From a virus (Duplodnaviria > Caudoviricetes), in IMG/VR virus record IMGVR_UViG_3300009506_001467, positions 1-61,310 of that record: a stretch of DNA of 61,310 bases. The stretch is one strand, 5' to 3'. Below the pieces are notes generated by a model that did not search any database, had not been told where the DNA came from, and saw nothing but the letters and a program-made list of their open reading frames with translations. Position numbers and translations under genes: made by a program. Positions 4,226 through 28,842 of this stretch are shown piece by piece. Each line of letters begins with the position of its first letter. Within the stretch, counting starts at the first letter, position 1.

Positions 4226-5530
4226 ATGAGCGAGCTTGCCTACTCATTCTATGGCAACGTGCTCAACGGGATGCTCTGCCGCGATCCAGAGGTCATGCTC
4301 TCGGGCCCGGCAGACACGGGCAAGACCCTTGCTCTCTTGTACAAGCTCCACGTGTGTGCGAGCAAGTATCCAGACTCGCAGATCTCGATCATCCGCAAGA
4401 TCAAGGCAGACATCCATGGCACCGTGCTGCGCACTTGGGAGAGAGACGTTCTACCGAGCTCACCATACGTGGAGGCCTACGGCGGCAAGATCCCACAGTG
4501 GTACGACTACCCCAACGGATCGCGCATCTGGCTCGGCGGCCTAGACAGCCCCGGCAAAACGCTCTCCGGCGAGCGTGACCTGATCTATGTCGTACAGGCT
4601 GAGGAGCTCACTGTCTCGGACTGGGAATACCTCACCCGTATGGTCACGGGTCGTGGCGCTGTGATGCCCTATACTCAACTGGTCGGGGACTGCAACCCGG
4701 GCCCACCCTCACACTGGATCATGACTCGCAGCAAGAGCGGCACTCTGACCCGCTTTGACACCGTACACAGAGACAACCCGACGATCTATGATCCAGAGAC
4801 GGGCGAGCTTACAGAGAGCGGGAAGCAGAGACTTGCCCGTCTCGCCAGACTGACCGGGCACAGGTACAAGCGTCTATTCCTCGGTCAGTGGGTTGCGCCA
4901 GAAGGGGCGATCTACACGGCCTACGATGAGGACACGCACAAGATCCACGCGATCGAGATCCCCCGCATGTGGCCCCGCTTTGTGGGCATCGACCCATACG
5001 GCGCACAGATCGGGGCGCTCTGGGTCGCGTGGGATGCGGAGGCAAGGCAGCTCCACGTGTATCGTGAGTACGAGCAGCCGTTCGGTGTGACGACTCCGCA
5101 GCACGTTTCCCAGATTCTCGAGATGTCGGGATACAGCACAGATCGCATCCCGACGAACCGCGCGGAGCCGATCTATGCGTGGGTCGGCGGCGGGCCATCA
5201 GAGCGCCAGCAGAGGGTAGACTTTGCGGGAGCTGGAATACCCCTGATCGCCCCGCCGATCACAGACGTGTGGACGCAGATCGATCGCGTCCAGCAGCTCC
5301 TGACAGAGGGGCGCATTGTGATCCACGATTGCTGCGTGGCGCTGCTCAGTGAGATCACAGACTATCACCGCAAGCAGAACAAGAGGACGGGCGAGTTCGA
5401 GAACACGATCGAGAACAAGGACGCCTATCACATGCTGGACGCTCTGCGCTATGTGATCGCGTTCTTGACCTCGCCGCAGGACGATGTACAGGTGGTCAAC
5501 GTGTCGGCTCAGATCGGGCCGAGTCTCTAA
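4226..5530 (+). CDS. terL: Terminase large subunit (PBSX-like)
   Basis: Walker A SGPADTGKT, GDCNP coupling motif, HRDNP, and C-terminal RNase H-like nuclease (FVGID ... HMLDALRY). Confidence 0.92.
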   Translation: MSELAYSFYGNVLNGMLCRDPEVMLSGPADTGKTLALLYKLHVCASKYPDSQISIIRKIKADIHGTVLRTWERDVLPSSPYVEAYGGKIPQWYDYPNGSRIWLGGLDSPGKTLSGERDLIYVVQAEELTVSDWEYLTRMVTGRGAVMPYTQLVGDCNPGPPSHWIMTRSKSGTLTRFDTVHRDNPTIYDPETGELTESGKQRLARLARLTGHRYKRLFLGQWVAPEGAIYTAYDEDTHKIHAIEIPRMWPRFVGIDPYGAQIGALWVAWDAEARQLHVYREYEQPFGVTTPQHVSQILEMSGYSTDRIPTNRAEPIYAWVGGGPSERQQRVDFAGAGIPLIAPPITDVWTQIDRVQQLLTEGRIVIHDCCVALLSEITDYHRKQNKRTGEFENTIENKDAYHMLDALRYVIAFLTSPQDDVQVVNVSAQIGPSL

Positions 5531-13213: not shown

Positions 13214-14347
13214 ATGATCACACGCAAACTGCTCCGGGCGATGTGCGAGACTTGGAAAGGCGAGCTCTCGGACGCCGGAGCGACACCACAACGGCTCGCA
13301 GAGTGCCAGAGTCTCTTTGAGGACATCGATCGCAACCTGTCGGGCGTCACCCCGACCAGCACGAATAACCTGCTGCTCCAAGAGGTGATGACGAGCGCCG
13401 ACTTCAACAACGCGATCCAGACCTTTGTGAGCAGGCTCTCGATCCCAGGCTACGAGCGCAAGGTATTCGCCTTTGAGCCCCTGGTGTGGATCGATACGCT
13501 CACAAACTTTTTGACCCATGACCGCTTGCAGAACCGCGGCTCGCTCGATGACCTCGAGCTCGTGGGCGAAAAGGGCGCGGCTCGCCCAGGCTCTGTGGAC
13601 GACGCCACCAAGCGATCGTACCGGGTCTACCTCTGGCAAAAGCAGTTCGATTTTTCCTGGGAGGCGATTCGCAACGATGACCTCTCGTACTTTGAGGACA
13701 CCGCCATGCGCATGGGCGAGGCCGCGCGCCGGACCCTGGAAAAGTTCGTCTCCCGCATGTACACCAACGCAACCTCGATCGCTCGTCTCACGGGCCTGGG
13801 CGCTCTCTATGCGCAGAATGGGCGCTTGACCTCTGCTCGAGTGAGCGAGTCCCGCATGGCGTACAACCAGCGCACAGACGCACGGGCAGAGCCGATCAAC
13901 GCCAGCATGCGCTACATCGTCCATCACACCGGGCTGGCAGACACCGTTGCACAGATCTTGGCCTCTGAGCTCGTCCCAGAGCTCGCGACCAACGCGGTCA
14001 ACGTCGCCCGAAACTTTATTCCCATCGAGGACCCGTACATCACGGGCACTGCCCCCAACCTACCGTGGTACGCATTCCCAGACTATCGCGAGAACAACAT
14101 CCGACCGTTTGTTCTGGCGCGTATGTCCGGCTGGGCGGGACCGCGCATCGTGCGCAAGCGATCGGACATCGAGGCCGTGACCTCAATGCTCGGCGCTGGT
14201 GCTCCTGTTGAGCCGATGATGGGAGACTTTGAGACGGGCAACGTGGTGCTCAAGGTCATGGACGTGTTCGGCACCTATGTCGATGGGACAGAGGGTAACT
14301 GGTTTGACTTCCGGGGTGGCTACTACTCTAGTGGCACCGTCGCGTAG
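13214..14347 (+). CDS. Major capsid protein (HK97 fold, Mu gpT-like)
   Basis: 377 aa, AGGAGG RBS; TSADF, LELVGEKG and FSWEAIRNDDL...MGEAARRT motifs. Confidence 0.8.
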   Translation: MITRKLLRAMCETWKGELSDAGATPQRLAECQSLFEDIDRNLSGVTPTSTNNLLLQEVMTSADFNNAIQTFVSRLSIPGYERKVFAFEPLVWIDTLTNFLTHDRLQNRGSLDDLELVGEKGAARPGSVDDATKRSYRVYLWQKQFDFSWEAIRNDDLSYFEDTAMRMGEAARRTLEKFVSRMYTNATSIARLTGLGALYAQNGRLTSARVSESRMAYNQRTDARAEPINASMRYIVHHTGLADTVAQILASELVPELATNAVNVARNFIPIEDPYITGTAPNLPWYAFPDYRENNIRPFVLARMSGWAGPRIVRKRSDIEAVTSMLGAGAPVEPMMGDFETGNVVLKVMDVFGTYVDGTEGNWFDFRGGYYSSGTVA

Positions 14348-16997: not shown

Positions 16998-17447
16998 CTA
17001 CATCAGGAGCAGTCGTGCCGCCAATTGTCGACCCTCTGGGCTGGCCTGGCGCAGACAGGTGACACCATAATGACAATATCGACACAGCGTTATCAAGTTC
17101 TCTGGATCGTCGTTGGGATTGTCGCTTGTCTCGCCGTTGATGTTGTTCTTGCGGGTGCGCTCGTCAGCACATGTTTGACAGGTCTCACGTGGCTTGTCTT
17201 GGTAAGTTCCCTCTGCTGGTGGGCGTTCGCCACAGAGCACACACAGTCCTGCGGCCTTCCGTTTTTGGGCGGTCGTGTTATGGCGATTACGGAGATACTG
17301 AGCATGTTGTCTATCGGAGCATTCCTGGCAAACTGGACGCTCTGGCAGAGGGGGACGTTTTCCACACCGCACGCACAGTCCTGCGGCTCGGTTGCGCTCC
17401 CTCCACGCCTTGACCTGGGCAGCACGTTCGGCCTTCGTTTTTGGCAT
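16998..17447 (-). CDS. Zinc-finger repeat protein with a degenerate HNH-like C-terminus, antisense to the structural operon
   Basis: Two AAGLCxxCG..P...CxxC repeats, then NINGETSDN...ENLITLCRYCH; AGGAGGT RBS and its own promoter. Confidence 0.7.
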   Translation of the reverse strand: MPKTKAERAAQVKAWRERNRAAGLCVRCGKRPPLPERPVCQECSDRQHAQYLRNRHNTTAQKRKAAGLCVLCGERPPAEGTYQDKPRETCQTCADERTRKNNINGETSDNPNDDPENLITLCRYCHYGVTCLRQASPEGRQLAARLLLM

Positions 17448-17465
17448 GATACACCTCCTGACCGT

Positions 17466-17495
17466 ATTATATACCAAAAGGTATGGGGGTGTAAA
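17466..17495 (-). promoter_or_regulatory. Promoter of the antisense zinc-finger/HNH gene
   Basis: TTTACA-18-TATAAT on the minus strand. Confidence 0.55.
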
Positions 17496-17497
17496 AT

Positions 17498-18187
17498 ATG
17501 GTAACGGCGACGAGTTGCAGTGGAGGCAGGTTTGCGGAAAGTTGGGAATTTGCTTCCTTCTGGTGCTACGGCCAATTGATCTCTGGCGCTCATGAGGGTG
17601 CGAACGCATCGCCTACACTCACAGACTCTCAAGGTCAGTTCACGACTCGGGGAGTTCGTGCGAACGTGGGCATGATCTTGTATAACCTGACTCAAGGAAC
17701 ATCTGGCGCAGTGAGTGCGGTCACACCTACCGTGCTCACTGCGGTAGGTGTGACTTGGGACACGGGCGATCTCTACCGCATCTGTTTGATCGATGGCATC
17801 GAGATCTCAACGATCGAGCACTACCTCAACGTTGCCGCGGGGGACATCATTATCGCCCTCGCAGCATCGGACCAGTGCAATTGTAATTGGGCGTCCTGGG
17901 CGCTCTCTACGGGCTCAAACGTGGGACTGCTCGCAAAGCTCAACATTATAGACGCCGCGGCCTACTACCAGTGCAAGTGCGGCCAACCTCAGTTCTCTGC
18001 TGGCGAGCGAGATCGCTACCTAAAGTGGATGAGCTCGCAGCTCGAGCAGCTCAGAGACGGGGACCTGGACATCTGCTCCGGCGCGACGGGTACGAACTTC
18101 CCGGCGATGGGCTGGGCGCAGCAAGGGCACAGCGAATTTCAGATGGCGCAGATCATCTGGAACGACATTCTCAGGAACAGCTCGTGA
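17498..18187 (+). CDS. Putative head-tail adaptor protein
   Basis: Between head and tail genes; helical C-terminal half (IEHYLNVAAGDI...YLKWMSSQLEQLRDG). Confidence 0.55.
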   Translation: MVTATSCSGGRFAESWEFASFWCYGQLISGAHEGANASPTLTDSQGQFTTRGVRANVGMILYNLTQGTSGAVSAVTPTVLTAVGVTWDTGDLYRICLIDGIEISTIEHYLNVAAGDIIIALAASDQCNCNWASWALSTGSNVGLLAKLNIIDAAAYYQCKCGQPQFSAGERDRYLKWMSSQLEQLRDGDLDICSGATGTNFPAMGWAQQGHSEFQMAQIIWNDILRNSS

Positions 18188-18525
18188 TCCACTACTTTGA
18201 CGATCTGAGAGCGATCGCGCCACATGCCCGTTTCTGAAACGGCCCACCAGTAGGATCGGGCCGATTCTCACAACAACAGAAACAGGGACCGCCGCCCCCG
18301 TTTCCCGGGGAAAATGGGTTCATACTGCTCGAGTACGTAGGGGCAGCCCCAGGCGTCAAGCACTGGCGGGGGGCACTCACTAGAGTGCTCTACCCATTCG
18401 GCAGAGCTCACACTGTAAACTATGTGGACGCTCGAGATGCGATCAAGTTCTTGACTCAGATCGTCGGCACAGGCGCGCAGCCCATATGGAGAGTCCATGA
18501 GAGTCGCCGTAAAGCGAGTGAGTAA
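18184..18525 (+). CDS. Candidate UGA-readthrough (selenocysteine) protein, 113 aa
   Basis: GTG 18184 overlaps the upstream TGA; single in-frame TGA at 18235-18237 followed by a hairpin; the frame stays open to TAA 18525, overlapping the next gene. Confidence 0.6.
18236..18267 (+). promoter_or_regulatory. SECIS-like stem-loop
   Basis: CGGCCC (18240-45) pairs with GGGCCG (18258-63), extended by GAA/TTC, starting 2 nt after the UGA. Confidence 0.5.
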
Positions 18526-19045
18526 AGGGGACGCTCTCGCTCATCTCGATCCTCAGAACTACCTGAGAGAGATCGCAGCGGAGACTAGAGACGTTGTAGT
18601 GCCAGAGGTCATGAATGAGCTGGACAAGTGGCAAGAGGACTGGGATCACAAGACAGACTTTGGCTCTCGAGTCTCTGCTCGCGGTGATGAGATCGTGACA
18701 TACATCTGGCCCAAGGGACCAAACGCCAAGTACTGGACGTGGACGTCTCGAGGAACGCCGAGACATGACATCCCAGTGGGCTCAAAGGGCTTTCTTGCTT
18801 TTCCCTGGGATGGGGTGCGGGGCAACTATAACCCGAACCCAAAAACGCTGCCGCAGGGCGCGGTAGTGGGCAGCGGCCCAGTGGACTGGGTGTACACACA
18901 GAAAACAGTAGATCACCCTGGTACGACTCCCCGGCTCTTTGAGGAGCGCACCATGAAGGCGTACAAAGGCACATACAAGAAACATGTCCGGCTGGCGATC
19001 GAGACGGTGAGAGATCGAAAGGTGAGACAATGGCAAAGCGCATAG
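18497..19045 (+). CDS. Neck/tail-completion protein (HK97 gp10-like)
   Basis: Basic protein with GTPRHDI...LAF...VDHPGT.PR.F motif. Confidence 0.6.
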   Translation: MRVAVKRVSKGDALAHLDPQNYLREIAAETRDVVVPEVMNELDKWQEDWDHKTDFGSRVSARGDEIVTYIWPKGPNAKYWTWTSRGTPRHDIPVGSKGFLAFPWDGVRGNYNPNPKTLPQGAVVGSGPVDWVYTQKTVDHPGTTPRLFEERTMKAYKGTYKKHVRLAIETVRDRKVRQWQSA

Positions 19046-19368
19046 TGATCAAGGTTCTCAAGATGAGCGGGGACTCTGCTTTGATCGAGTACGAGCAGAA
19101 AGGAAAGATCAAGCGGGCCTATCTGCCCATCTCTGACATACAGGACGATCGGGTCGATCCAGAGGCTCTCGATCTCGCGATCCCTTATGGCGTACCCTGG
19201 GCGGCGCTGCTTGATCTCTCTGACCTCACTCCAGAGAGAGTTGAGCTCGAGCTGCACAAGTATGGCATTTGGACTCTGCAAGATCTAGAGAACAAAGATC
19301 GCATCCTGATCCGAATTGGGACAGATCTCATAACAAAGGCTGTACGGGCAGCCTCAGAGAAAGGATAG
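19030..19368 (+). CDS. Hypothetical tail-region protein
   Basis: Overlapping ORF in the structural operon. Confidence 0.6.
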   Translation: MAKRIVIKVLKMSGDSALIEYEQKGKIKRAYLPISDIQDDRVDPEALDLAIPYGVPWAALLDLSDLTPERVELELHKYGIWTLQDLENKDRILIRIGTDLITKAVRAASEKG

Positions 19369-19374
19369 ACAACC

Positions 19375-20958
19375 ATGAGTGAGTACTTTGATGAGTTTGA
19401 GGGTGTTATCTGGGTGCAGCCCAACGGCCCGAATACCGAACCTGTGCCGTTGCTCTGTGCAACGATCGACGGGCTCGATCAGCCCCTTGGAGACGTTACC
19501 CGGCGTTTCTGCCGTACCGGGTCGGGCGGCATCCGAAGGGCCAAGACGTTGCAGGCAACCCCCGGCTCGATCACCGGGGACATCATGCTCTGGAAGTCCA
19601 GAACGCGCAACGTCCTACAGTATATGGTGGAGAACAGAGCAAACGGCGGGGTCTGTCCCGGCGCTCTCTACATCCACCACGGGCTCTGCGGTCGGGATGA
19701 TGTGTTCTTGAACTTTATTACCACGCAAGTGGTCATGGACCTGATCCTGACCAACAAGTCAAGCGGCAATCTCGCTCGCGGGCAGCGAGAGGAGAACGAT
19801 ACTCCCGAGATGGTCGGGCAGACCTACTCGGCATCTGCCGATCCGTTCTCGCCAGAGATCTATGCGGAGCTGCTCAACACCTACCTCGCATGCGTCGCAG
19901 AGGACGAGCCGTTTCGCGCTCTGGCGATCTGCTCTGAAACAGTCTGCCAGAGCTCTGCTTGCGGCACATACGCATCTCGCTGTGATGAGGTGCACGTCGC
20001 TGCCGATGCTGCGGGCGCAGCGATCGCGGATGGGTACGTCTCTGCCGACGCTCTGAGCTCTTGTGCAGCGTGGGCCGCGCAGCCCTTTGCCGCCGATGAG
20101 CACATCTCTGCTCTCGCCTGTTTCAAGGAGGGACCGACCACAGAGGTCTTGATCGCTGCTCGAGGCACCACAGACGGAGCGAACCCAGCAGAGATCGCTC
20201 GTTCCATCGACGGTGGCGCAACGTGGACCGCTTATGATGTTGGCTCTACCAACGGCGAGTTTGTTGAGCACTCGCAAGCTCTCTTTGCGCTCGATCATCG
20301 CCACATCTGGCTTGCAACCGATCTCGCCAACATATACTTCTCCAAGGACGGTGGGCGCACCTGGACCGATCAGAACGCACCAACCCCCGGTGCATCTGAG
20401 GGACTGTTCGGCATTCACTTTGTTGACGAGAACTATGGAATGGCGGTCGGCGGGTTCCGCACGACTCCCACGGGACTGTTCTTGCAGACCACGGACGGCG
20501 GCGAGCACTGGAACCTCATGGCGACCGAGCCAGAGGTAGAGCGTGGAAACTGGGTGCAAGTGCTTGATGGTTCTCGAGCGTGGGTCGGCATGGACGATGG
20601 CACGATCTGGTATACTCTAAACTGGGGCACGACCTGGACGCAGCGTGTCCTTCCAGAGACTCTGATCAACACCGGGGTCGGCGTATTCTACAATGAGTAT
20701 ATCGGCGCGGTTGCTGGCTACAAGACGGGCTCTGGAAACGGAATCCTTGTTGTCTATGTGACCCCCGATGGTGGCTGGTCGTGGGAGCAGTTCAACCCCA
20801 CAGAGGAGGGCGAGCTCAACGCGGCGGCGGCGTACTTTGGGATCAACGATCTCAAGTTCTGCGATCCTAACCATCTCATCGCCGCGACCGAGGCACTGAC
20901 AACGACCGGGGACTCGCTGATCTGGTCGATCATGCCAGCAGGGTGGACCGCATTCTAG
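19375..20958 (+). CDS. Probable major tail protein with a C-terminal Asp-box (BNR/YCF48-like) beta-propeller
   Basis: Directly upstream of the chaperone and TMP genes; Asp-boxes SIDGGATW, SKDGGRTW, TTDGGEHW, TLNWGTTW, TPDGGWSW. Confidence 0.65.
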   Translation: MSEYFDEFEGVIWVQPNGPNTEPVPLLCATIDGLDQPLGDVTRRFCRTGSGGIRRAKTLQATPGSITGDIMLWKSRTRNVLQYMVENRANGGVCPGALYIHHGLCGRDDVFLNFITTQVVMDLILTNKSSGNLARGQREENDTPEMVGQTYSASADPFSPEIYAELLNTYLACVAEDEPFRALAICSETVCQSSACGTYASRCDEVHVAADAAGAAIADGYVSADALSSCAAWAAQPFAADEHISALACFKEGPTTEVLIAARGTTDGANPAEIARSIDGGATWTAYDVGSTNGEFVEHSQALFALDHRHIWLATDLANIYFSKDGGRTWTDQNAPTPGASEGLFGIHFVDENYGMAVGGFRTTPTGLFLQTTDGGEHWNLMATEPEVERGNWVQVLDGSRAWVGMDDGTIWYTLNWGTTWTQRVLPETLINTGVGVFYNEYIGAVAGYKTGSGNGILVVYVTPDGGWSWEQFNPTEEGELNAAAAYFGINDLKFCDPNHLIAATEALTTTGDSLIWSIMPAGWTAF

Positions 20959-21893: not shown

Positions 21894-24682
21894 GCCAGCA
21901 ATTGCCACAGGACGGGGTGCGCCTTGTTGTGGAGGGTGTGTCTCAATTCATAGACAACATGAACAAGGCGGGTGTTGCTTGGGACAGGGTATCTGCCTCG
22001 TTCACGGATGCAAGCGGCAAGACCAGAACCTTAAGCGTCAGCACAGACAAGGTTGCCAGTTCTGTTGCAAAAGCGGGATCTGCGGCGAGCCAAGCCCTTA
22101 GCCCGTTTGATCAAATGATCAAGGGGTTCGGCCAGGGGGCGATCGGCGCGACCGGAATGAATGGCGCCTTGTCTGCCCTCTCTGGCGGTGTTGCGGGCGT
22201 CTCTGTCATGCTCGGTCAAGTGCTCGTTGCGGCGCTCAAGAAGGTTGGCGAGGCCCTCAAAACGATCTTTATAGATCTCCCCAAGGAAGCGGCCCCGCTC
22301 GAGGGCATCTCTGCTCAGTTCTCTACACTGACTCAAAACATCGAGGGCGGCTCCCGTAAAATGATGGCTGCGCTACAAGCGGGATCATCGGGTATGATCC
22401 CCATGCGCGATCTCATGACCCAGTTCAACAACGCCTCCGCTCTCGTGTCCGACCAGTTCGCTCAGAACCTACCGCAAGCACTGGGTCTCCTGGGGAAAGT
22501 CTCTGCCGCCACGGGCAAGGATATGAATTACCTCATGGAGTCTCTGGTCAACGGCGTTGGTCGTGTGACTCCTCTGGTCATTGATAACCTGACGGTTCAG
22601 GTCTCGCAAGCAGAGGCCACCGCCCGCGCCACGGAGATGTTCAACAAGCAAAAGGAGGCGCTCTCCAAGCTCGAGCAGCAAACCGCGCTCAACACTCTAG
22701 TGATGGAGAAACTAGAGGCCAAGTACGGCGCACTGCCTGACATCGGTGCGACAACCTCCGCGCAGCTCGCGGTCATGTCGGCGCACTTTCAGAACATCAA
22801 GGACATACTCGGGCAAGCAATGCTGCCCGCTTTCAATACTCTACTGACCACGCTCAATACTCTGGTGGGTACGATCTCGAGCATGCTCTCTGAGGGCGGC
22901 GAGCTCGAGCCCTGGCTGATCCGCATCGGGGCGCTGACGTCTCTATGGGCAGACGGTATAGCTATTCTGGGCGAGGCCCTTGGTCTCATAGCGCCCAAGG
23001 CGGCGGGCATGTACGACAACATTGCCAAGAGCGTATTTGGGATCATCGAGGACGCCCTCACATGGGGCGTTGAGCTGATCGCCCAGTTCGCAGCAGGAAT
23101 GGCAGAGGCAGCGAGCAGCATCCTGATCCAGGCACTTAACTTTATAGGCGGTATACTCGAGCAGTGGCTGCTGGGCGCATCGCCGCCCAAGATCGCGCCC
23201 GGCATCGAGCAATGGGGGATCAAGACCTTTGAGCGATACCTCACGGGCATGACTGAGGCAGACTTTGGCATACTCGAGGGCATCCAGAAGCCACTGCAAA
23301 AGATCCTCGAGGGTCCAGCTCTCGCCAACGTCTCCAAGATCATCTCAGGCGCCCTCGCTGGCGGCGATCGGGCTACGATCTTTGATACCGTCTCAAAGTC
23401 TGCCGGGATCTTTGGCAGTGCGATCAATAAAATGATCGGTCTGCAATTCGAGCTCGCGGACTCTACAAAAGCAGTAGAGGAGGCAGAGCTTGCTCTCGAG
23501 CAAGCACGCAACAAACTGCTCGGCCAGCAGGACGATGTGAACAAGGCCACCGTTGAGTACAACCGCTTGCTCAGAGAGGGCGCAGATCCAGCAGTTCTCA
23601 AGGAGAAACTGGCACAGATCAACGCAGCGGAGGAGGCCATGCGCCTGACTCAAGATCAGGTGCAGACCCAGGATGAGTTTATCTCGAGCGAGAAGCAGAG
23701 GATCGAGGGCATCAAGACAGAGGCAGAGCTGCAAAAGAAACTGGTGGATCAGCTCCTCGGGGTCAATGATGCGCTCCAAGTACAAGAGGAAAAAGGCAAG
23801 AAAGGCGCAGCGGGTGTCCCCACGATAGCCCCTGAGGTATCTGGCCTTACGGGCACGCTCGGCACGAGACTGGGCACAGCGATCGAGGGCATGAAAGAGA
23901 AGCTCAAGGAAAAGTTCAGAGACATCTTTGCTCCTCTGAGCGAGGCGTGGGACAAGATCGTGCTCAAGGTCGGGGACATCGGCACTGCCTGGGAAAAGTT
24001 CAAGGCCAAGGTCGGCTCTGTCTGGGATGATCTCAAGCTCAAGTACCCGGTGCTGCAAGACATCGAGGACCTGATCCAGAACCTCAAGACGTCGATCCCA
24101 GAGCTGGCAACAGAGCTTTCGGACAAGTTTCATAGTGCGTGGTCCAAGATCTGGGGCATTCTCTCAGGTCAAGAGGACGGGGGCATCCTAGGCGCACTGA
24201 CCGCAGTGTGGGATTTTCTCAAAGACTCATGGGGCACGATTATGGAGTCGGACGCAGCGAAAGCGATCAAGACCTTCACTACCGATGTGATCGAGAGACT
24301 CAAGACAGGCGTGGAGGGCATTGTAACCGCTGTGGGCAACATGATTGCAAAGATCGGGGAGCTCGCCCGCCTGCCGCTTGACAAGATCAGAGAGGCGCTC
24401 GGCTGGGGTATCGCAGAGTCGCCCGCGCCGCTTGCGCTTGGTCTGCAACAGATCAACAGAGAGCTTGTCAAGATGAGCGGATCGAGCTTGCCGAGTCTGG
24501 GGGGCTCTATGCGTATGATGCCCGCCATGGCTCCTGTGTCAAGCTCATCTATGACAACGAACAACAACAGTCCGATCCAGATCACTTTCTCTGGCCCGGT
24601 GACGATCGGCAGCACAAACGACATGCGCCAGTTTACGGCACAGCTCGAGCGCACTGTGCGCAATGTGATGGAGAGGCGATAA
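21890..24682 (+). CDS. Tape measure protein
   Basis: 930 aa, Ala/Gly/Leu-rich and helical, with spaced Trp/Phe repeats, a coiled-coil section and the typical NNNSPIQITF C-terminus. Confidence 0.88.
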   Translation: MSQQLPQDGVRLVVEGVSQFIDNMNKAGVAWDRVSASFTDASGKTRTLSVSTDKVASSVAKAGSAASQALSPFDQMIKGFGQGAIGATGMNGALSALSGGVAGVSVMLGQVLVAALKKVGEALKTIFIDLPKEAAPLEGISAQFSTLTQNIEGGSRKMMAALQAGSSGMIPMRDLMTQFNNASALVSDQFAQNLPQALGLLGKVSAATGKDMNYLMESLVNGVGRVTPLVIDNLTVQVSQAEATARATEMFNKQKEALSKLEQQTALNTLVMEKLEAKYGALPDIGATTSAQLAVMSAHFQNIKDILGQAMLPAFNTLLTTLNTLVGTISSMLSEGGELEPWLIRIGALTSLWADGIAILGEALGLIAPKAAGMYDNIAKSVFGIIEDALTWGVELIAQFAAGMAEAASSILIQALNFIGGILEQWLLGASPPKIAPGIEQWGIKTFERYLTGMTEADFGILEGIQKPLQKILEGPALANVSKIISGALAGGDRATIFDTVSKSAGIFGSAINKMIGLQFELADSTKAVEEAELALEQARNKLLGQQDDVNKATVEYNRLLREGADPAVLKEKLAQINAAEEAMRLTQDQVQTQDEFISSEKQRIEGIKTEAELQKKLVDQLLGVNDALQVQEEKGKKGAAGVPTIAPEVSGLTGTLGTRLGTAIEGMKEKLKEKFRDIFAPLSEAWDKIVLKVGDIGTAWEKFKAKVGSVWDDLKLKYPVLQDIEDLIQNLKTSIPELATELSDKFHSAWSKIWGILSGQEDGGILGALTAVWDFLKDSWGTIMESDAAKAIKTFTTDVIERLKTGVEGIVTAVGNMIAKIGELARLPLDKIREALGWGIAESPAPLALGLQQINRELVKMSGSSLPSLGGSMRMMPAMAPVSSSSMTTNNNSPIQITFSGPVTIGSTNDMRQFTAQLERTVRNVMERR

Positions 24683-27600
24683 TGAGCGAGGCAAGAAACT
24701 ATTACACGATGTTCTCCAAGTTTTTGATCACAAACGGAACGATCGAGGTCGATCTGCTCTCGCTCTCATCCACAACAGGCCTTCACCTTGTCACGTGGGA
24801 GCCGAGCATCGCCCAGCCAAAGAGCTCTAGTGTGTGGTCTGATCCCGCGCTCTCAGATGGCGGCGATCCACACACAGAGGCGCTCGCTAACGTCGAGGAG
24901 GCCATGACCTTTGACGTTGCAGCGTGGAACGATCCCGATCTCTACAAGATGGTACAGGATCTACGCTACCTTCTCAGAGAAGCAAAGCGATACTGGATGA
25001 CCGGGTATCAGGTAGACCCCGTGTGGATTGTGCGCCAGGGGATCTGTGAGGACAACCCCGGTTACTCGATGGTCAAGGCGGGGCTCACCCCGACAGATGA
25101 CGATCCGTTCCACGACCCGGTAGCGCCTGAGTTCGGCAGCGTTGCCTACATAGACTGGCCCATGACTCTGATCAGAGAGCCGCTCTGGCGAGACGTTGAG
25201 CCGGGGGATACAGAGTGCCTCCCCGCCTATGGTAGCAAGGAATACTGCTACCCCTGCCACGTGGAGTTCGATGGTGACTCGGGTGATATTACGATACCAG
25301 ACGTTGCTGCGGTTCAAGATCTTGCTGATAACGCGATGACTGTAGAAGCATGGGTCAGAGCAGATGGCTACGGCCTGGACAATGAGGGCTGGATCGCCGC
25401 AAAGTATAGCAGCACTGGCTGGTTGCTTATCCTGCATGGTACTGTGGGCCTTTGGGCACAAATAGAGTGCGCGGTCACTGATAGCTACGCCAGGTCATTC
25501 TCGCTTACTCCGGATGGGGAATGGCACCATGTCGCATTCACCTGGGATGATAGTTCATACAGGCATCCTAGATTGTGGGTGGATGGAAAAGAAGCAGATT
25601 ATGCGGATGTGCAGGAAAGAAGCGGTGCGATTGTCTCCGATGTTGGGAGTGTTCTAACGATTGGAGAGAGACTAACAGGAATCAACACCTGGGAAGGTGG
25701 AATCGGCTGGTCGCGCATCTCAGACATCGTGCGCTATGACCGGGACTTTACGCCTCCCTCACGGTGCCGCTTGCCAGAGGATGATGGTAACACGGTTGGC
25801 GCGTGGATTGGCTATGAATGCTCTGGTTCTACCATCGTGGACCACAACGACCCCACGGCTGGCACATTGGACGGAACCCTGACCAGTGGCACGTTCGATT
25901 GCGATTGCTGGACCCTTGCAGGGCAGATCGGGGATGAGGGAATCGGGTATCTTGAGTACCGCAACCTGGACACCGTCGCACAGGTGACGGACGATGCTGC
26001 ACTCCAAGACCTTGCCGACGCGGCGATGACCATTGACGGTTGGTTCAGGGCGCGCTTTGCAACATCCTCTGGAAACCTGCTCATTGAAAAGGGACAGGCA
26101 GGTGGAGCAGGCTGGCAGGTCTGGATCACTGCTAGCGGCTCACTACTCGTGCGCATTGAGTGCGCCGTTACGGATGCTGTGTCCTATGCGTCCGCGGCGA
26201 TTACCTGGGGTGAGTGGCAACATTGGGCCATCACCTGGGACGATGCATCGTACACGGTAGCACGGGTATGGATCAACGGGGTGGAGGACACAAACACGAG
26301 CACGGCACGCAACGGCGCGATTGTCTCGGATGTCGGACGAGACATGTACATCGGCGTGCGCCTCGGTTCTGCCAACGAGTTTGACGGGGATATCGGTTGG
26401 GTTCGCATCTCGGACGAGGTTCTCTGGACGTCAGACTTTGACGACGATCTACCCGAACGCTGCGAACTGCCCGTGGTCGATGCGAACACGATCTGGCTCG
26501 GCATACAGGAGGGTGAGGGTGTCGTGGCCTACGATCACAGCGGCAACGACAACCACGCCGCTCTCTCTGCGCTCAATTGGGGCAAGGACTGTTGCGGTGA
26601 CATCGCAAGTGTGGACGTCACAGAGATCAAGAACGCCTATGTGATCTGTGATGGCGCGGATACGATCATCACCTACACCGACGCCGCGCAGATCCAGGAC
26701 TTGCATGATGCGGCGATGACCGTGGAGGCTTGGATACGGGCCGACTCGGCGGGAGAGTCAAACCAGGGGCACATCATTGGCAAGGATGCAAATGAGACAC
26801 TGGGCTGGTTCGTTCGCATGACGGCAACGGGATTCTACGCCGAGATCGTGTGTGCTGTGGCTAGTGGGACGGTTGCAACAACCTTTGTGGCTGCTGGCGT
26901 CTCTTTCGGGGAGTGGCTGCATATCGCCGTCACCTGGGATGATGCTACATATAACTACCCGCGCCTGTGGATCAATGGAACAGAGTACTCAACGACAACG
27001 AACAACAGGAACGGTGCGGTGGCTACAGATGTTGGATCAGATCTCGTTGTCGCAAACCAGCAAGACCTTGCAGCGACCTTTGACGGGGACATCGGGTGGG
27101 TGCGTGTCTCTCCCTCTATCCTCTACACGGGTACGTTCACCCCTCCCGACCGATGCACGGCTTGGTGGGATCTAGTTCTGGGTGGTGTCGCACTGCTCAC
27201 GATCTTTGATGAGCATGGCGAGGTTGCCCTGGATTACACTCCCTACTACAACCACGGCATCATCGCGGATGGGGACTGGGGATCATCCTGTGCGGTCGAG
27301 CAGGACATCTCATGTGCCTACTCACTCGGGGCGAGCTTGCCAGCGGAAGTGTCGGCAACATGTCTAGAGATCAACTATGTGATCAACTCACACGTCCGAA
27401 GGCAGTTTACTCACATGTTCATTGCGGACTGGGCGGGTGGAGCAGTTTGGAACTATAGCGGAAACCTGATCGGAACAGAGGGAGAGATCATACTGCTCCC
27501 GGCTGCGCCAGCGGTCAACGATCGGATCTTTATAGGGATCGCGAGCGGCCACCCAGCAGCTCAGAGAATGGGAAACATTGTCTGGGATATTGCCACGCCA

Positions 27601-28842
27601 GCAGAGGACATAGACTTTGCTGTGAGAGTGCTGCAAACAGGTGGTGCCTCACAATCCGTGTACGCAACGTATCACAGGGACAACACATCGACCGATCCGA
27701 CCACGATCGTATCGCCCAAGGATGCGCTTTCGGTAGAGGGAATCAATGCTCTTGTGTGGACCGCTGGCGCTTGGGCAACCCCAGAGACGATCAACGGCAT
27801 TCTCGGTTACTGGCTGCGCTATGAGGTTGGGGCGCTGGGCGGCAGTCCCGTGGTCCCGATCGCTGCAAGTGCGCCCTATACGGTGACGTGGCCTTATGTG
27901 ACCGTACACACGGACGATCTCGGCGGTGATGAGCTCTTGCTGATCAAGGCGACTCTGCACAACCAGTCCGATCTTGACTATCAAGGGTATGGCTCAACGA
28001 CCAAGCTCCTTGTAGGCTCAAGAGAGCTTGATCGAGGAGAGGACTTTACAGCCTATCTGCTCTGTGGCTCAGAGGAGCTGCCCCCTGGACAGACCAACAC
28101 AGCGGGAACCAATGCTGCACTGAACACAAACGGCACAGGCGATCCAAACTCGCCCAAGTCCGAATGTCGCTATACTCCCGTGGCAACGCCCGAGGCGCTG
28201 GCAACTCGTCTCACGATCTCTCTAGACTCTACACTTGGTCCACAGTTTCATGGCAACTACCACTGTTATGCTCGTTTTGGTTCATTCAACGGCGGCACAT
28301 GGCAAAGCAGAATAGCAGTTCGGAATGGGAGCAGCGGCCAAGTACTCTACGGAGAAACTGTAACACACGGAAATGGCCTTCGGTTCGCAACCTTCGATCT
28401 AGGAAGCATTACCCTGGGAGAAGCAAACCCGGACACTGAGTTTGATCAGATCAACATATACTGGCAAGCGGGACGGGTGACAGGCGGCACATATCTCGAG
28501 CTCGTTGATCTGTTCATTCTGCCCGTGGACGAGTGCTCTGGGATCTTTGACATGCTGGGCACAAGTAGTTTCCTCACGCCCGACTATGCAGAGCTGGATA
28601 GTGCAACGTTTCCACGAGAGCAGATCATCGCAGTGGTGAGGGATGAGAACGATCTGCAAGTCGGCAGAATGCTCGCGAATGCCACGATCCTGGGCTTGCA
28701 GCCCAAGAGAACGCAGCGACTATGGTTTTTCTCATATGGCCTGGACGCGTCGAGCAACGAGCTCGCCTATCCCTACATCATGTACACGGTCGGGCTCGAG
28801 CGGGTGCAACGCTATTGGTCTATGCGGGGAGATGAGACATGA
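24682..28842 (+). CDS. Large tail protein with three LamG/concanavalin A-like domains
   Basis: Three repeats of QDL.D.AMT(V/I)(E/D).W.RA...W.H.A.TWDD...W(V/I)(D/N)G...G.IGW.R(I/V)S; follows the TMP. Confidence 0.8.
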   Translation: MSEARNYYTMFSKFLITNGTIEVDLLSLSSTTGLHLVTWEPSIAQPKSSSVWSDPALSDGGDPHTEALANVEEAMTFDVAAWNDPDLYKMVQDLRYLLREAKRYWMTGYQVDPVWIVRQGICEDNPGYSMVKAGLTPTDDDPFHDPVAPEFGSVAYIDWPMTLIREPLWRDVEPGDTECLPAYGSKEYCYPCHVEFDGDSGDITIPDVAAVQDLADNAMTVEAWVRADGYGLDNEGWIAAKYSSTGWLLILHGTVGLWAQIECAVTDSYARSFSLTPDGEWHHVAFTWDDSSYRHPRLWVDGKEADYADVQERSGAIVSDVGSVLTIGERLTGINTWEGGIGWSRISDIVRYDRDFTPPSRCRLPEDDGNTVGAWIGYECSGSTIVDHNDPTAGTLDGTLTSGTFDCDCWTLAGQIGDEGIGYLEYRNLDTVAQVTDDAALQDLADAAMTIDGWFRARFATSSGNLLIEKGQAGGAGWQVWITASGSLLVRIECAVTDAVSYASAAITWGEWQHWAITWDDASYTVARVWINGVEDTNTSTARNGAIVSDVGRDMYIGVRLGSANEFDGDIGWVRISDEVLWTSDFDDDLPERCELPVVDANTIWLGIQEGEGVVAYDHSGNDNHAALSALNWGKDCCGDIASVDVTEIKNAYVICDGADTIITYTDAAQIQDLHDAAMTVEAWIRADSAGESNQGHIIGKDANETLGWFVRMTATGFYAEIVCAVASGTVATTFVAAGVSFGEWLHIAVTWDDATYNYPRLWINGTEYSTTTNNRNGAVATDVGSDLVVANQQDLAATFDGDIGWVRVSPSILYTGTFTPPDRCTAWWDLVLGGVALLTIFDEHGEVALDYTPYYNHGIIADGDWGSSCAVEQDISCAYSLGASLPAEVSATCLEINYVINSHVRRQFTHMFIADWAGGAVWNYSGNLIGTEGEIILLPAAPAVNDRIFIGIASGHPAAQRMGNIVWDIATPAEDIDFAVRVLQTGGASQSVYATYHRDNTSTDPTTIVSPKDALSVEGINALVWTAGAWATPETINGILGYWLRYEVGALGGSPVVPIAASAPYTVTWPYVTVHTDDLGGDELLLIKATLHNQSDLDYQGYGSTTKLLVGSRELDRGEDFTAYLLCGSEELPPGQTNTAGTNAALNTNGTGDPNSPKSECRYTPVATPEALATRLTISLDSTLGPQFHGNYHCYARFGSFNGGTWQSRIAVRNGSSGQVLYGETVTHGNGLRFATFDLGSITLGEANPDTEFDQINIYWQAGRVTGGTYLELVDLFILPVDECSGIFDMLGTSSFLTPDYAELDSATFPREQIIAVVRDENDLQVGRMLANATILGLQPKRTQRLWFFSYGLDASSNELAYPYIMYTVGLERVQRYWSMRGDET

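Follow-up and report, generated by a model that had tools for sequence, protein, structure and literature searches.

The 61,310-nucleotide stretch of DNA analysed here (referred to as the window), from an uncultured marine-sediment phage, contains a 309-bp gap in its tightly packed structural gene block that is filled by a reading frame interrupted by a TGA codon. One can ask whether this frame is a single gene and, if it is, how the UGA in its transcript is read. We find that the gene is probably a phage-encoded selenoprotein gene, i.e., that the UGA is probably decoded as selenocysteine (Sec), a kind of gene that we could not find described; the function of the putative protein remains a matter of inference.

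A TGA-Interrupted Gene Fills the Gap

The initial annotation noted that the gap is filled by one frame that starts at a GTG coupled to the upstream stop, passes through TGA and ends in a TAA overlapping the next gene, with no likely site of re-initiation after the TGA. This observation was confirmed. The candidate gene occupies positions 18184–18525 of the plus strand and has 113 codons, including the UGA at codon 18, plus the stop codon. The GTG start codon (18184–18186) overlaps the TGA stop of the upstream gene (18185–18187, GTGA), and an AGGAA sequence lies 6 nt upstream of it. Sixteen further sense codons follow (VIHYFDDLRAIAPHARF), then the TGA at 18235–18237, then 95 sense codons up to the TAA at 18523–18525. 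The gene overlaps the next gene (ATG at 18497) by 29 nt. The other two forward frames are full of stops. The first in-frame ATG, GTG or TTG after the TGA is the GTG at 18385, which is 49 codons downstream and inside the conserved domain described below.

The TGA is not an assembly slip, since an independent assembly, a Logan contig of 21,272 nt, possibly from the same sample, covers positions 17400–19400 with 0 differences at a depth of 13.6, and the TGA recurs in 11 other loci. Elsewhere in the window, TGA behaves as an ordinary stop: it ends 32 of 74 crude ORFs, including large genes with ATGA overlaps.

The TGA Is Conserved, and Both Sides Evolve as Coding Sequence

A metagenome scan returned 15 related loci, of which 10 carry an in-frame stop at this site and 5 carry Cys. 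Together with the window and one viral locus, L001, this makes 12 loci with an in-frame stop. The stop is TGA in 12 of 12 cases, never TAA or TAG, whereas the stops of the neighbouring upstream genes are TAG, TAA or TGA. The loci fall into four clades that share only 34–62% identity, and their frames are open to a common end. Cys codons (TGC or TGT) are found at the equivalent site in the related loci L009–L012 and L016. Orthologous genes with the same layout as that of the window are seen in L001 and in the metagenomic locus L002, where ATG start codons lie at the same distance from the TGA (17 codons) as the GTG at 18184. In these two loci the frame is closed two codons further upstream of the ATG. 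We therefore rejected the possibility that the frame is entered by a frameshift from the upstream gene.

The 17 codons preceding the UGA (18184–18234; a helix is predicted for residues 4–11) appear to be translated together with the downstream part. L001 and L002 differ in this segment at codon positions [1,1,7], with 5 synonymous and 2 non-synonymous codon changes. Loci L006, L007 and L008 differ after the TGA only at third positions, with 4 of 4 changes being synonymous. Single BLASTP HSPs between the window and Cys-form proteins in which the domain is fused to GT2 glycosyltransferase (database proteins P0023 and P0053) run from the N-terminal segment across the TGA into the domain.

The Gene Belongs to a Large, Mostly Viral Family with a Near-Invariant Cysteine

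A profile search with the family alignment retrieved 604 cluster representatives, mostly viral, at E ≤ 1e-3. Typical members begin with MGCCGG or carry this motif after GT2 glycosyltransferase domains; we refer to the family as the MGCCGG-type family for convenience. Among the best 150 hits, 51 stand-alone proteins begin with Cys within the first 5 residues, and a further 47 fusion proteins carry a CC motif. Members share the core G-E-x-G-[FLM]-x-x-L-E-Y-x-G ... Y-x-F-G ... V-G-Y-V-D-x-R-D, preceded by a Cys motif and a linker. The window protein belongs to this family: an HMM built from Cys forms only matches it at 66.9 bits (E 5.9e-22). In the window, the conserved core domain is encoded at 18304–18495 (residues 41–104; PGENGFILLEY...VNYVDARDA...PIWR) and is predicted to be beta-rich, with an AlphaFold2 pLDDT of 91–98 over these blocks.

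In order to determine whether the TGA corresponds to the family cysteine, alignments were made with X at the TGA position, so that it was scored neutrally. In the three sister clades (represented by L005, L006–L008 and L013–L015), the TGA coincided with the first, near-invariant Cys in most alignments. BLASTP placed X opposite Cys in 4 of 6 HSPs for L005, 5 of 6 for L006 and 3 of 4 for L013. The Cys-only HMM placed the X of L005 on the first C of "mgCC". MAFFT placed X in the Cys column (Cys in 93–94 of 99 rows, i.e., selected family members) in 3 of 3 modes for L005, L006 and L008 and in 2 of 3 modes for L013 and L015. For the window's own clade, neutral alignments did not put the TGA on the Cys column, and the register is uncertain by about two residues. 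BLASTP gave 0 of 6 HSPs for the window and 0 of 6 for L001, while MAFFT gave 0 of 3 modes, two of which placed X on the Met two residues before the Cys and the third in a mostly gapped column further upstream. In this clade, the link to the Cys rests on orthology with the sister clades and on the shared U-[N/G]-G-G motif.

No informative match for the domain was found in PHROGs, Pfam, NCBIfam, a PDB sequence profile search, the ESM Atlas, or by Foldseek against PDB and BFVD (0 hits at E ≤ 0.001 in both libraries); weak PsaD-like rows in the PDB search (TM about 0.3, E > 1) were rejected as noise. A homology search with the 95-residue part alone returned nothing, a DNA search of the phage GenBank collection gave no match, and cluster annotations gave no useful names. 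Further scans of viral contigs added only contigs already known plus one Cys form, L022. Scans of 185,579 species genomes with the family alignment and with the alignment of the upstream gene revealed no prophage.

The upstream neighbour (17498–18187, plus strand; 229 aa) is conserved and syntenic in the related loci and contains the Cys motifs CNC, CKCG and DICSG. Its alignment is shallow, and its predicted structure had a mean pLDDT of only 45.7. The downstream neighbour (18497–19045, plus strand; 182 aa) overlaps the end of the candidate gene, and a similar reading frame is visible in L001. Neither neighbour matched a Pfam, PHROG or NCBIfam family.

Hairpins Downstream of the UGA

The initial annotation pointed to a GC-rich hairpin immediately after the UGA as a SECIS-like element. 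This hairpin (18236–18267; CGGCCC at 18240–18245 pairing with GGGCCG at 18258–18263, extended by GAA/UUC) is real and thermodynamically dominant: its energy is −15.9 kcal/mol in 55 nt (z = −3.2), 0 of 200 dinucleotide shuffles were as stable, and pair probabilities are about 1.0. However, it is absent from the closest relatives, L001 and L002, and its apical loop lies only 8–11 nt after the UGA, whereas the published bacterial SECIS model requires 16–37 nt (PMC13188914).

A different hairpin, at 18252–18268, is shared within the clade and is the better SECIS candidate. It has the sequence AGGAUCG-GGC-CGAUUCU (7 bp; loop at 18259–18261, 21 nt after the UGA) and overlaps the codons for GSGRF. 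L001 and L002 have GGGAUCG-GGU-CGGUUCC, where A-U becomes G-U and the loop becomes GGU. In the window this hairpin is weak on its own (−4.9 kcal/mol), and in free RNA it loses to the larger hairpin (probability 0.001).

Similar elements are present in all four TGA clades, with a G-containing loop 18–24 nt after the UGA. A hairpin with at least 6 perfect base pairs, a 3–5 nt loop starting at nt 20–31 and G in the first two loop bases was found in 8 of 8 TGA sequences (4 of 4 clades) and in 1 of 4 Cys loci, the exception being L016. The same feature occurs in 4–16% of synonymous-codon randomisations and at 112 of 2071 TGA trinucleotides in the window. These statistics are modest, and the feature was defined after the folds had been seen. 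In L013 versus L015 the loop changes, with amino acid changes, while the 7-bp stem is kept. The published model asks for a stem-loop with a 3–9 nt loop, G in the first two loop bases, 16–37 nt after the UGA and an MFE ≤ −7.5 kcal/mol (PMC13188914). The geometry fits in 8 of 8 TGA sequences, while the energy of the perfect hairpin alone is ≤ −7.5 kcal/mol in 5 of 8, with the window clade reaching −4.9 to −6.0 kcal/mol; our scan is a simplification that does not allow bulges, and E. coli fdhF itself fails it for this reason. Overall folding energy after the TGA was mostly unremarkable against dinucleotide or synonymous-codon controls; it was not better than that of synonymous-codon controls in 6 of 8 sequences (p = 0.17–0.93), the exceptions being L013 (p = 0.009) and L015 (p = 0.018). 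Gly, Arg and Ala codons make GC hairpins easily. No SECIS match was found in Rfam. SelB–SECIS pairs are lineage-specific.

Selenocysteine as the Probable Reading of the UGA

We consider it probable that 18184–18525 is one gene for a 113-residue protein whose 18th codon is decoded as Sec by the SelB and tRNA-Sec of the host. In this view, ribosomes would start at GTG 18184, coupled to the stop of the upstream gene. When UGA 18235 reaches the A site, the 5′ arm of the large hairpin would lie inside the ribosome, freeing nt 18252–18268 to form a small stem-loop with a GGC loop that recruits SelB. Termination at the UGA would give only a 17-residue peptide, while Sec insertion would give the full protein, so that its yield would depend on host Sec capacity and selenium supply. 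The protein would have a flexible N-terminal arm carrying the Sec, a Gly/Pro-rich and basic linker and a compact beta-rich domain. The Sec/Cys residue is inferred to be the working group, in a redox, metal-binding or covalent-linking role, possibly together with the Cys-rich protein encoded just upstream.

What the analysis establishes is the gene layout, the conserved TGA, the Cys in relatives, the coding constraint on both sides and the use of TGA as a normal stop elsewhere; that the inserted residue is Sec rather than another, which hairpin is used, the dependence on the host, and everything about the function of the protein are inferred, from sequence alone. The conserved TGA, the Cys homologues and the SECIS-like hairpin are the criteria that were used to name new prokaryotic selenoprotein families in metagenomes (PMC1088965). 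On the other hand, no selB was found in the window's genome, and no tRNA-Sec, selD or selA was found in the window's genome or in four related viral records, so the Sec machinery would have to come from the host. No RNA holder was listed for this stretch. In addition, Sec at codon 3, as would be the case in three clades, is not known to have been documented.

The interpretation offered in the initial annotation, a phage selenoprotein made with host SelB and tRNA-Sec, is partly supported. Its core idea, one gene read through a conserved UGA with selenocysteine as the best explanation, survived every test that was run, but the hairpin that it named is not the conserved one, and the FdhF-like peptide context is specific to this one genome. 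Placement in the neck region, use of host SelB/tRNA-Sec and a link between virion assembly and selenium or redox state remain inference.

A more far-reaching reading, which we consider only slightly more likely than not, is that this is the first family of bacteriophage-encoded selenoproteins, a small protein from the structural gene block whose only route to full length is host SelB-dependent decoding of a single UGA, codon 3 in some lineages. Production of the protein, and possibly of infectious particles, would then be gated by the host's Sec trait and by selenium supply. The Sec/Cys residue would be the reactive group of a new N-terminal (seleno)cysteine arm domain, widespread in viruses and sometimes fused to glycosyltransferases or to helix-hairpin-helix DNA-binding tails.

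A phage gene requiring the host Sec system would add a new layer to host range, because only Sec-decoding hosts could make the protein, and would tie phage production in anoxic sediments to a trace element. It would show that gene callers systematically hide such genes; this one is missed or truncated in the databases, and N-terminally truncated gene calls in the family include, for example, P0030, P0033, P0046, P0072, P0077, P0127 and P0139. It would also provide a small, non-enzymatic-looking family in which the choice between Sec and Cys can be compared across orthologues, and Sec at codon 3 would test how close to the start codon a bacterial SECIS can work. Independently of selenium, the MGCCGG domain defines a large, mostly viral family with no description.

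Alternative Explanations

The best surviving alternative, though an unlikely one, is programmed leaky termination without selenium, in which the UGA is read at low frequency by a near-cognate ordinary tRNA (Trp in most bacteria), keeping the full-length protein scarce, and the resemblance to a Sec site is incidental. UGA is the leakiest bacterial stop, a conserved TGA with coding sequence on both sides fits any readthrough mechanism, the statistical support for the hairpin is modest, and no Sec machinery was found in the phage records searched. However, in the sister clades the stop sits on a residue that is Cys in 93–94 of 99 selected family members, and Trp there would replace what looks like the key residue. 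Moreover, only TGA is used in the 12 loci, and it lies at the Cys position in three clades, whereas a leaky stop could sit anywhere in the gene.

It is also unlikely that the UGA ends a short upstream ORF, of 17 codons here and 2 codons in other clades, with the domain protein made separately by re-initiation at a downstream, possibly non-canonical, start. In L006–L008, ATG-NNN-TGA followed by GGNGGNGGAGG looks like a minimal ORF plus a Shine-Dalgarno-like run; L006 and L013 have in-frame GTG/ATG codons before the domain, and gene callers started some database proteins there, for example P0019. However, in the window, L001 and L002, no ATG, GTG or TTG occurs between the TGA and the middle of the conserved domain. 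The codons just after the TGA change only synonymously in L006–L008, and that segment is homologous to the Cys-Gly-rich and basic segment of the Cys forms. In the window, the segment before the TGA is homologous to the pre-Cys segment of fusion proteins within one HSP.

SelB/SECIS-type recoding that delivers cysteine, through a Sec-like tRNA charged with Cys, is a remoter possibility. Such a mechanism has been described for some anaerobic bacteria, and the sediment origin may fit such hosts. The evidence for site-specific recoding fits it and Sec insertion equally, but it is the rarer mechanism.

A decaying gene or sequence artefact is very unlikely: although TGA is one mutation away from TGC/TGT and gene callers miss or truncate the gene, the same TGA occurs in 12 loci of four clades with intact downstream frames, substitution patterns are of the coding type, and the Logan assembly is identical. 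Genome-wide reading of TGA as sense (NCBI tables 4 or 25), under which U-G-G-G-G would read as a Gly run in table 25, is contradicted by the stop usage described above, by the absence of a suppressor tRNA (0 tRNAs in the window), by a G+C content of 56%, and by a scan of the 19 uncovered gaps of at least 150 nt, in which this was the only gap judged to be filled by a coherent TGA-interrupted frame, although a few others held frames with 1–2 TGA.

Comparison with Known Recoding Systems

As far as our searches show, Sec decoding is described only for cellular genes and for two poxvirus genes captured from hosts. No mention of a phage-encoded selenoprotein was found in the literature searched, and a 2026 review of prokaryotic selenoproteomes (PMC13188914) does not mention phages or viruses, though the lists of predicted families supplementing PMC12013277, PMC13188914 and PMC1088965 could in principle contain this one. 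The poxvirus glutathione peroxidases (molluscum contagiosum, fowlpox), the only viral selenoproteins named in a review of recoding (PMC8310308), likewise depend on the host Sec machinery. They are, however, captured cellular GPx genes with eukaryotic SECIS elements, whereas the arrangement here is of the bacterial in-ORF type, in a tailed phage and in a family without cellular enzyme relatives.

The families predicted by Sec/Cys pairing in the Sargasso Sea study (PMC1088965) rest on the same kind of evidence, a conserved in-frame TGA in at least two sequences, Cys homologues and a SECIS-like hairpin, but are cellular and mostly thiol oxidoreductase-like. Genome-wide stop codon reassignment in phages, e.g., TAG to Gln in crAss-like phages (PMC9523058), also yields genes that are unreadable under the standard code, but it affects many late genes and often comes with suppressor tRNAs, while here a single TGA would be recoded and no tRNA is encoded.

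Among bacterial selenoprotein genes with an in-ORF SECIS, the archetype is E. coli fdhF (Sec140). It also has an in-frame UGA with Cys in homologues and a stem-loop with a small G-containing apical loop about 20 nt downstream; the fdhF loop GGUC is at nt 22–25, and here the loops of the candidate hairpins are at nt 22–30. In contrast to fdhF, the present gene is encoded by a phage within its structural gene block, its protein family is new and has no oxidoreductase fold that we could recognise, and in three clades the UGA is codon 3. The initial annotation had likened the ARF-U-NGPPV context of the window to that of FdhF. FdhF does read CCARV-U-HGPSVAGL, so the resemblance is correct, but it is not shared by the window's relatives (ARY-U-NGGGK, ARF-U-GGGGK). 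In the window, even the eight bases ACGGCCCA at nt 5–12 after the U are identical to those of fdhF, although these bases are not conserved in relatives.

Genomic context of the candidate gene

The window is a complete 61,310-bp IMG/VR virus record with direct terminal repeats and 56% G+C that comes from, or is at least present in, a marine sediment metagenome. The gene under study is located downstream of a terminase-like gene (4226-5530, a weak match to the Terminase_3C domain with an E value of 8e-4, below the curated cut-off), between a capsid gene (13214-14347, Pfam Phage_capsid_4) and genes with beta-helix, BNR and laminin-G domains that look like tail or fibre genes. Among the latter are a 1386-aa protein with three laminin-G/concanavalin-like stretches (24682-28842) and a 527-aa protein with BNR/sortilin-like repeats (19375-20958), which are likely receptor-binding or fibre proteins of a phage with almost no PHROG matches. 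The phage also encodes a radical SAM protein of 416 aa (1600-2850, Pfam PF04055, E value 1.3e-10) upstream of the terminase-like gene.

The initial annotation described a reading frame interrupted by an in-frame TGA at this place, and its description of the sequence proved to be exact. The GTG codon at 18184 overlaps the TGA stop codon of the upstream gene and is followed by sixteen further sense codons, a TGA at 18235 and 95 sense codons that lead to a TAA at 18523. The other two forward frames are closed. The next canonical start codon in frame is GTG 18385, located 49 codons downstream of the TGA.

Related loci retain the in-frame TGA

We next searched for relatives of the gene. A scan of viral contigs and one metagenome scan gave 16 related loci (designated L001-L016, L001 being the viral one). 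Of the 15 metagenome loci, ten have an in-frame stop at the equivalent place and five have none. With the window and L001, all 12 stop-containing loci have TGA at this site, never TAA or TAG. These loci form four clades. In the first clade (window, L001, which is identical to L003 and L004, and L002), a start codon and 16 codons are followed by TGA and then by N/G-G-G. The second clade is represented by L005, which reads M-G-TGA-G-G-S-G-R, the third by L006, L007 and L008, which read M-S-TGA-G-G-G-G-R, and the fourth by L013 (identical to L014) and L015, which read M-A-TGA-G-C-W. Identity to the window protein is 58-62% within its own clade and 34-44% to the others.

The gene just upstream (229 aa, 17498-18187 in the window; L001 2265-2951, L007 289-942, L013 2305-2958 and L016 2514-2954) is conserved in these loci, as judged from an alignment of its product, so they are orthologous positions. 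It carries conserved Cys motifs (C-x-C, C-x-C-G and D-x-C-x-G), has no Pfam, PHROG or NCBIfam family, and its AlphaFold2 model was poor (mean pLDDT 45.7).

The five loci without a stop have Cys codons at this place. L016 begins with M-G-C-G-G, while L009 to L012 have ..RPMGCCG.., ..VSCCGG.. or ..MPCCGK.. inside large proteins. The three of these that were scanned against Pfam (L010, L011 and L012) have GT2 glycosyltransferase domains (PF00535) in their N-terminal parts.

The gene product belongs to a large protein family

A profile built from 12 sequences retrieved 604 cluster representatives at E<=1e-3 among 1.84 billion proteins. Of these, 129 scored <=1e-10 and none <=1e-30. Among the best 150, 51 stand-alone proteins of at most 220 aa start with Cys within the first five residues, typically as MGCCGG, and 47 longer proteins carry [M..]CC[G/Q] before the domain. 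The rest either start inside or after the linker or were not classified by the patterns used (41, 38, 28 and 43 of 150 under a stricter rule). Some of the N-terminally short gene calls are truncated versions of TGA forms: the database protein P0056 matches L001, and P0019 matches the L013 type. Others may hide further TGA forms. Searches of Pfam, PHROG, NCBIfam and PDB sequences revealed no counterpart of the domain, and the nearest ESM Atlas clusters are unnamed and 63-95% viral.

Alignment of the TGA with the conserved cysteine

Since writing the TGA-encoded residue as Cys forces the answer, the alignments were repeated with X at the TGA. An HMM built from Cys forms only aligns L005 end to end, with X on the first C of “mgCC”, and L006 and L008 are in register. 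BLASTP puts X opposite Cys in 4 of 6 HSPs for L005, 5 of 6 for L006 and 3 of 4 for L013, but in 0 of 6 for the window and 0 of 6 for L001. MAFFT was run in three modes on 8 TGA forms and 99 Cys forms; the Cys forms were chosen because they carry the motif, and the column count is therefore partly by construction. For L005, L006 and L008, X falls in the column where 93-94 of 99 rows have Cys in 3 of 3 modes, and for L013 and L015 in 2 of 3 modes. For the window, L001 and L002, this holds in 0 of 3 modes: in two modes X lands on the Met two residues before the Cys, and in the third mode it lands in a mostly gapped column further upstream. Thus, the Sec/Cys pairing is clean in three clades, while in the clade of the window it is uncertain by a couple of residues in a flexible Gly-rich stretch and rests on orthology and on the shared motif (U-GGGGK in L002 and U-GGGGR in L006).

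Coding constraint on both sides of the TGA

In the segment before the TGA, L001 and L002 differ at codon positions [1,1,7], with 5 synonymous and 2 non-synonymous codon changes. In the segment after the TGA, L006, L007 and L008 differ only at third positions, and 4 of 4 changes are synonymous. The N-terminal 17 residues of the window protein (YFDDLRAIAPHA..) are homologous to the segment before the CC motif of fusion proteins (P0023, a Cys-form GT2 fusion protein, has FVDKLRAMVPDI..) and lie within HSPs that continue through the TGA into the domain. We infer from these sequence data that both sides of the TGA are translated in one frame.

One could expect, alternatively, that the domain is produced by separate initiation downstream of the TGA. 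However, in the window, L001 and L002 there is no canonical start between the TGA and the middle of the domain, and a separately initiated product would therefore lack conserved strands. In L006-L008, the Gly codons about 8-19 nt after the U of the TGA spell GGTGGAGGA/GGCGGAGGA, which is Shine-Dalgarno-like, and are followed by in-frame GTG codons, so some downstream initiation could be possible in that clade.

The possibility that the phage uses a different genetic code is contradicted by stop usage, since TGA ends 32 of 74 crude ORFs of the window, including large genes with ATGA overlaps, and the window has no tRNA gene. Among 19 uncovered gaps, this was the only one that we judged to be filled by a coherent TGA-interrupted frame, though a few other gaps also held frames with 1-2 TGA. 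A sequence error is likewise contradicted, as a Logan contig covers positions 17400-19400 with no difference; this contig may come from the same sample and is thus an independent assembly rather than an independent sample.

Hairpins downstream of the TGA

The initial annotation proposed a GC-rich hairpin (CGGCCC/GGGCCG) starting 2 nt after the UGA as a SECIS-like element. This hairpin is the dominant fold of the free RNA, with an energy of -15.9 kcal/mol (z = -3.2) and pair probabilities of about 1.0. However, it is absent from L001 and L002, and its loop lies 8-11 nt after the UGA, whereas the published bacterial model asks for 16-37 nt, a 3-9 nt loop and G in the first two loop bases (PMC13188914, Fig. 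2 legend).

Every TGA sequence has a different, small hairpin that fits this geometry. In the window it is AGGAUCG-GGC-CGAUUCU, nt 18-34 counted from the U, at -4.9 kcal/mol. L001 and L002 have the same hairpin with a GGU loop and one A-U to G-U change, at -6.0. L005 has a GGC loop at nt 28, at -8.7 (-9.5 when a 20-nt segment was folded), L006 to L008 have a CGUG loop at nt 25, at -11.8, and L013 and L015 have a GGGC or AGGG loop at nt 22, at about -14. A rule written after these hairpins had been seen, and hence post hoc, requires at least 6 perfect bp, a 3-5 nt loop starting at nt 20-31 and G in the first two loop bases. It is satisfied by 8 of 8 TGA sequences (4 of 4 clades), by 1 of 4 Cys loci (L016), by 4-16% of synonymous-codon randomisations, and at 112 of 2071 TGA trinucleotides in the window, or 12 of 191 of those with a GC-rich downstream stretch. 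Total folding energy beats synonymous controls only in L013 and L015 (p = 0.009 and 0.018; the others range from 0.17 to 0.93), the hairpin of the window clade on its own misses the -7.5 kcal/mol threshold, and our simplified scan does not pass even E. coli fdhF, because it allows no bulges. The Cys-form orthologue L016 (2980-3034, M-G-C-G-G) still has a 7-bp hairpin with a GGC loop at nt 27-29 after the Cys codon, like the TGA forms, which may reflect a recent switch between Sec and Cys or may be a sign that such hairpins arise from the Arg/Ala/Gly codons alone.

We infer from the dimensions of the ribosome that, when the UGA is in the A site, the first dozen or so bases after it are inside the ribosome, so that the large hairpin would then be melted and nt 18-34 would be free to fold.

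The resemblance to fdhF pointed out in the initial annotation is real for this genome (ARF-U-NGPPV against ARV-U-HGPSV). In addition, the eight bases ACGGCCCA at nt 5-12 counted from the U of the UGA (18239-18246) are identical in the window and in E. coli fdhF, where they form the 5′ arm of the SECIS lower stem. Since neither resemblance is shared by relatives (the eight bases are not conserved in L001 or L002), we treat it as coincidence or local convergence.

Search for selenocysteine machinery and a host

No selB was found in the genome of the window, and no tRNA-Sec, selD or selA was found in the genome of the window or in four related viral records. No prophage relatives were found in GTDB species genomes, and the host could not be assigned by this route. 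Sediment anaerobes often have large selenoproteomes (see, for example, the title of PMC1976440), but this is general background and not evidence about the host of this phage.

A predicted phage-encoded selenoprotein family

The recoding review PMC8310308 names only two poxvirus GPx genes as viral selenoproteins. We found no paper that speaks of a phage or bacteriophage selenoprotein in the literature searched, supplementary material not being covered, and papers that use the term “viral selenoprotein” deal, by their titles, with viruses of humans or animals or with selenium and human health. Phages and viruses are not mentioned in a 2026 review of prokaryotic selenoproteomes (PMC13188914) or in the deep-Sep paper (PMC12013277), and other literature searches likewise turned up nothing on the point.

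By the criteria that the field uses for metagenomic selenoprotein discovery (PMC1088965), this is a new predicted selenoprotein family, and it is phage-encoded. We consider Sec recoding probable rather than established, given the lack of an assigned host, the modest SECIS statistics and the two-residue uncertainty of the Cys alignment in the clade of the window. The layout of the gene, the conservation of the TGA, the Cys codons in related loci, the coding-type changes on both sides and the ordinary use of TGA as a stop elsewhere follow directly from the analysis, while the insertion of selenocysteine, the use of a particular hairpin and any function of the protein are inferred. The interpretation offered in the initial annotation, a phage selenoprotein of the neck region with a SECIS-like hairpin, is thus partly supported: selenocysteine remains probable, the hairpin named there is not conserved, and the assignment as a neck protein is unproven.

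Predicted structure and domain fusions

AlphaFold2 with a 61-row alignment gives a model of the window protein with a mean pLDDT of 86. The core, residues 41-104, is confidently predicted and has five short strands and one helix, while residues 1-40 have low confidence and contain a short helix at residues 4-11. No fold match reached significance. A near-invariant Cys or Sec on a flexible arm, followed by a basic linker, suggests a reactive or metal-binding group, and the conserved Cys-rich product of the upstream gene is a candidate partner; both ideas are inferred.

In the metagenome contigs L010 (1645-3495), L011 (23-1840) and L012 (1-1323), the same domain forms the C-terminal part of the proteins with GT2 glycosyltransferase domains, and the motif there is ..Y-x-G-E-R-P-M-G-C-C-G-G... 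The Met before the CC is kept even inside the fusions, which might mean an internal start or a structural role. Their tails resemble short DNA-binding modules (DUF6887-like in L012), and some longer Cys-form members end in a helix-hairpin-helix domain, as in the stand-alone protein P0013 (Pfam HHH_5, E value 3.9e-9).
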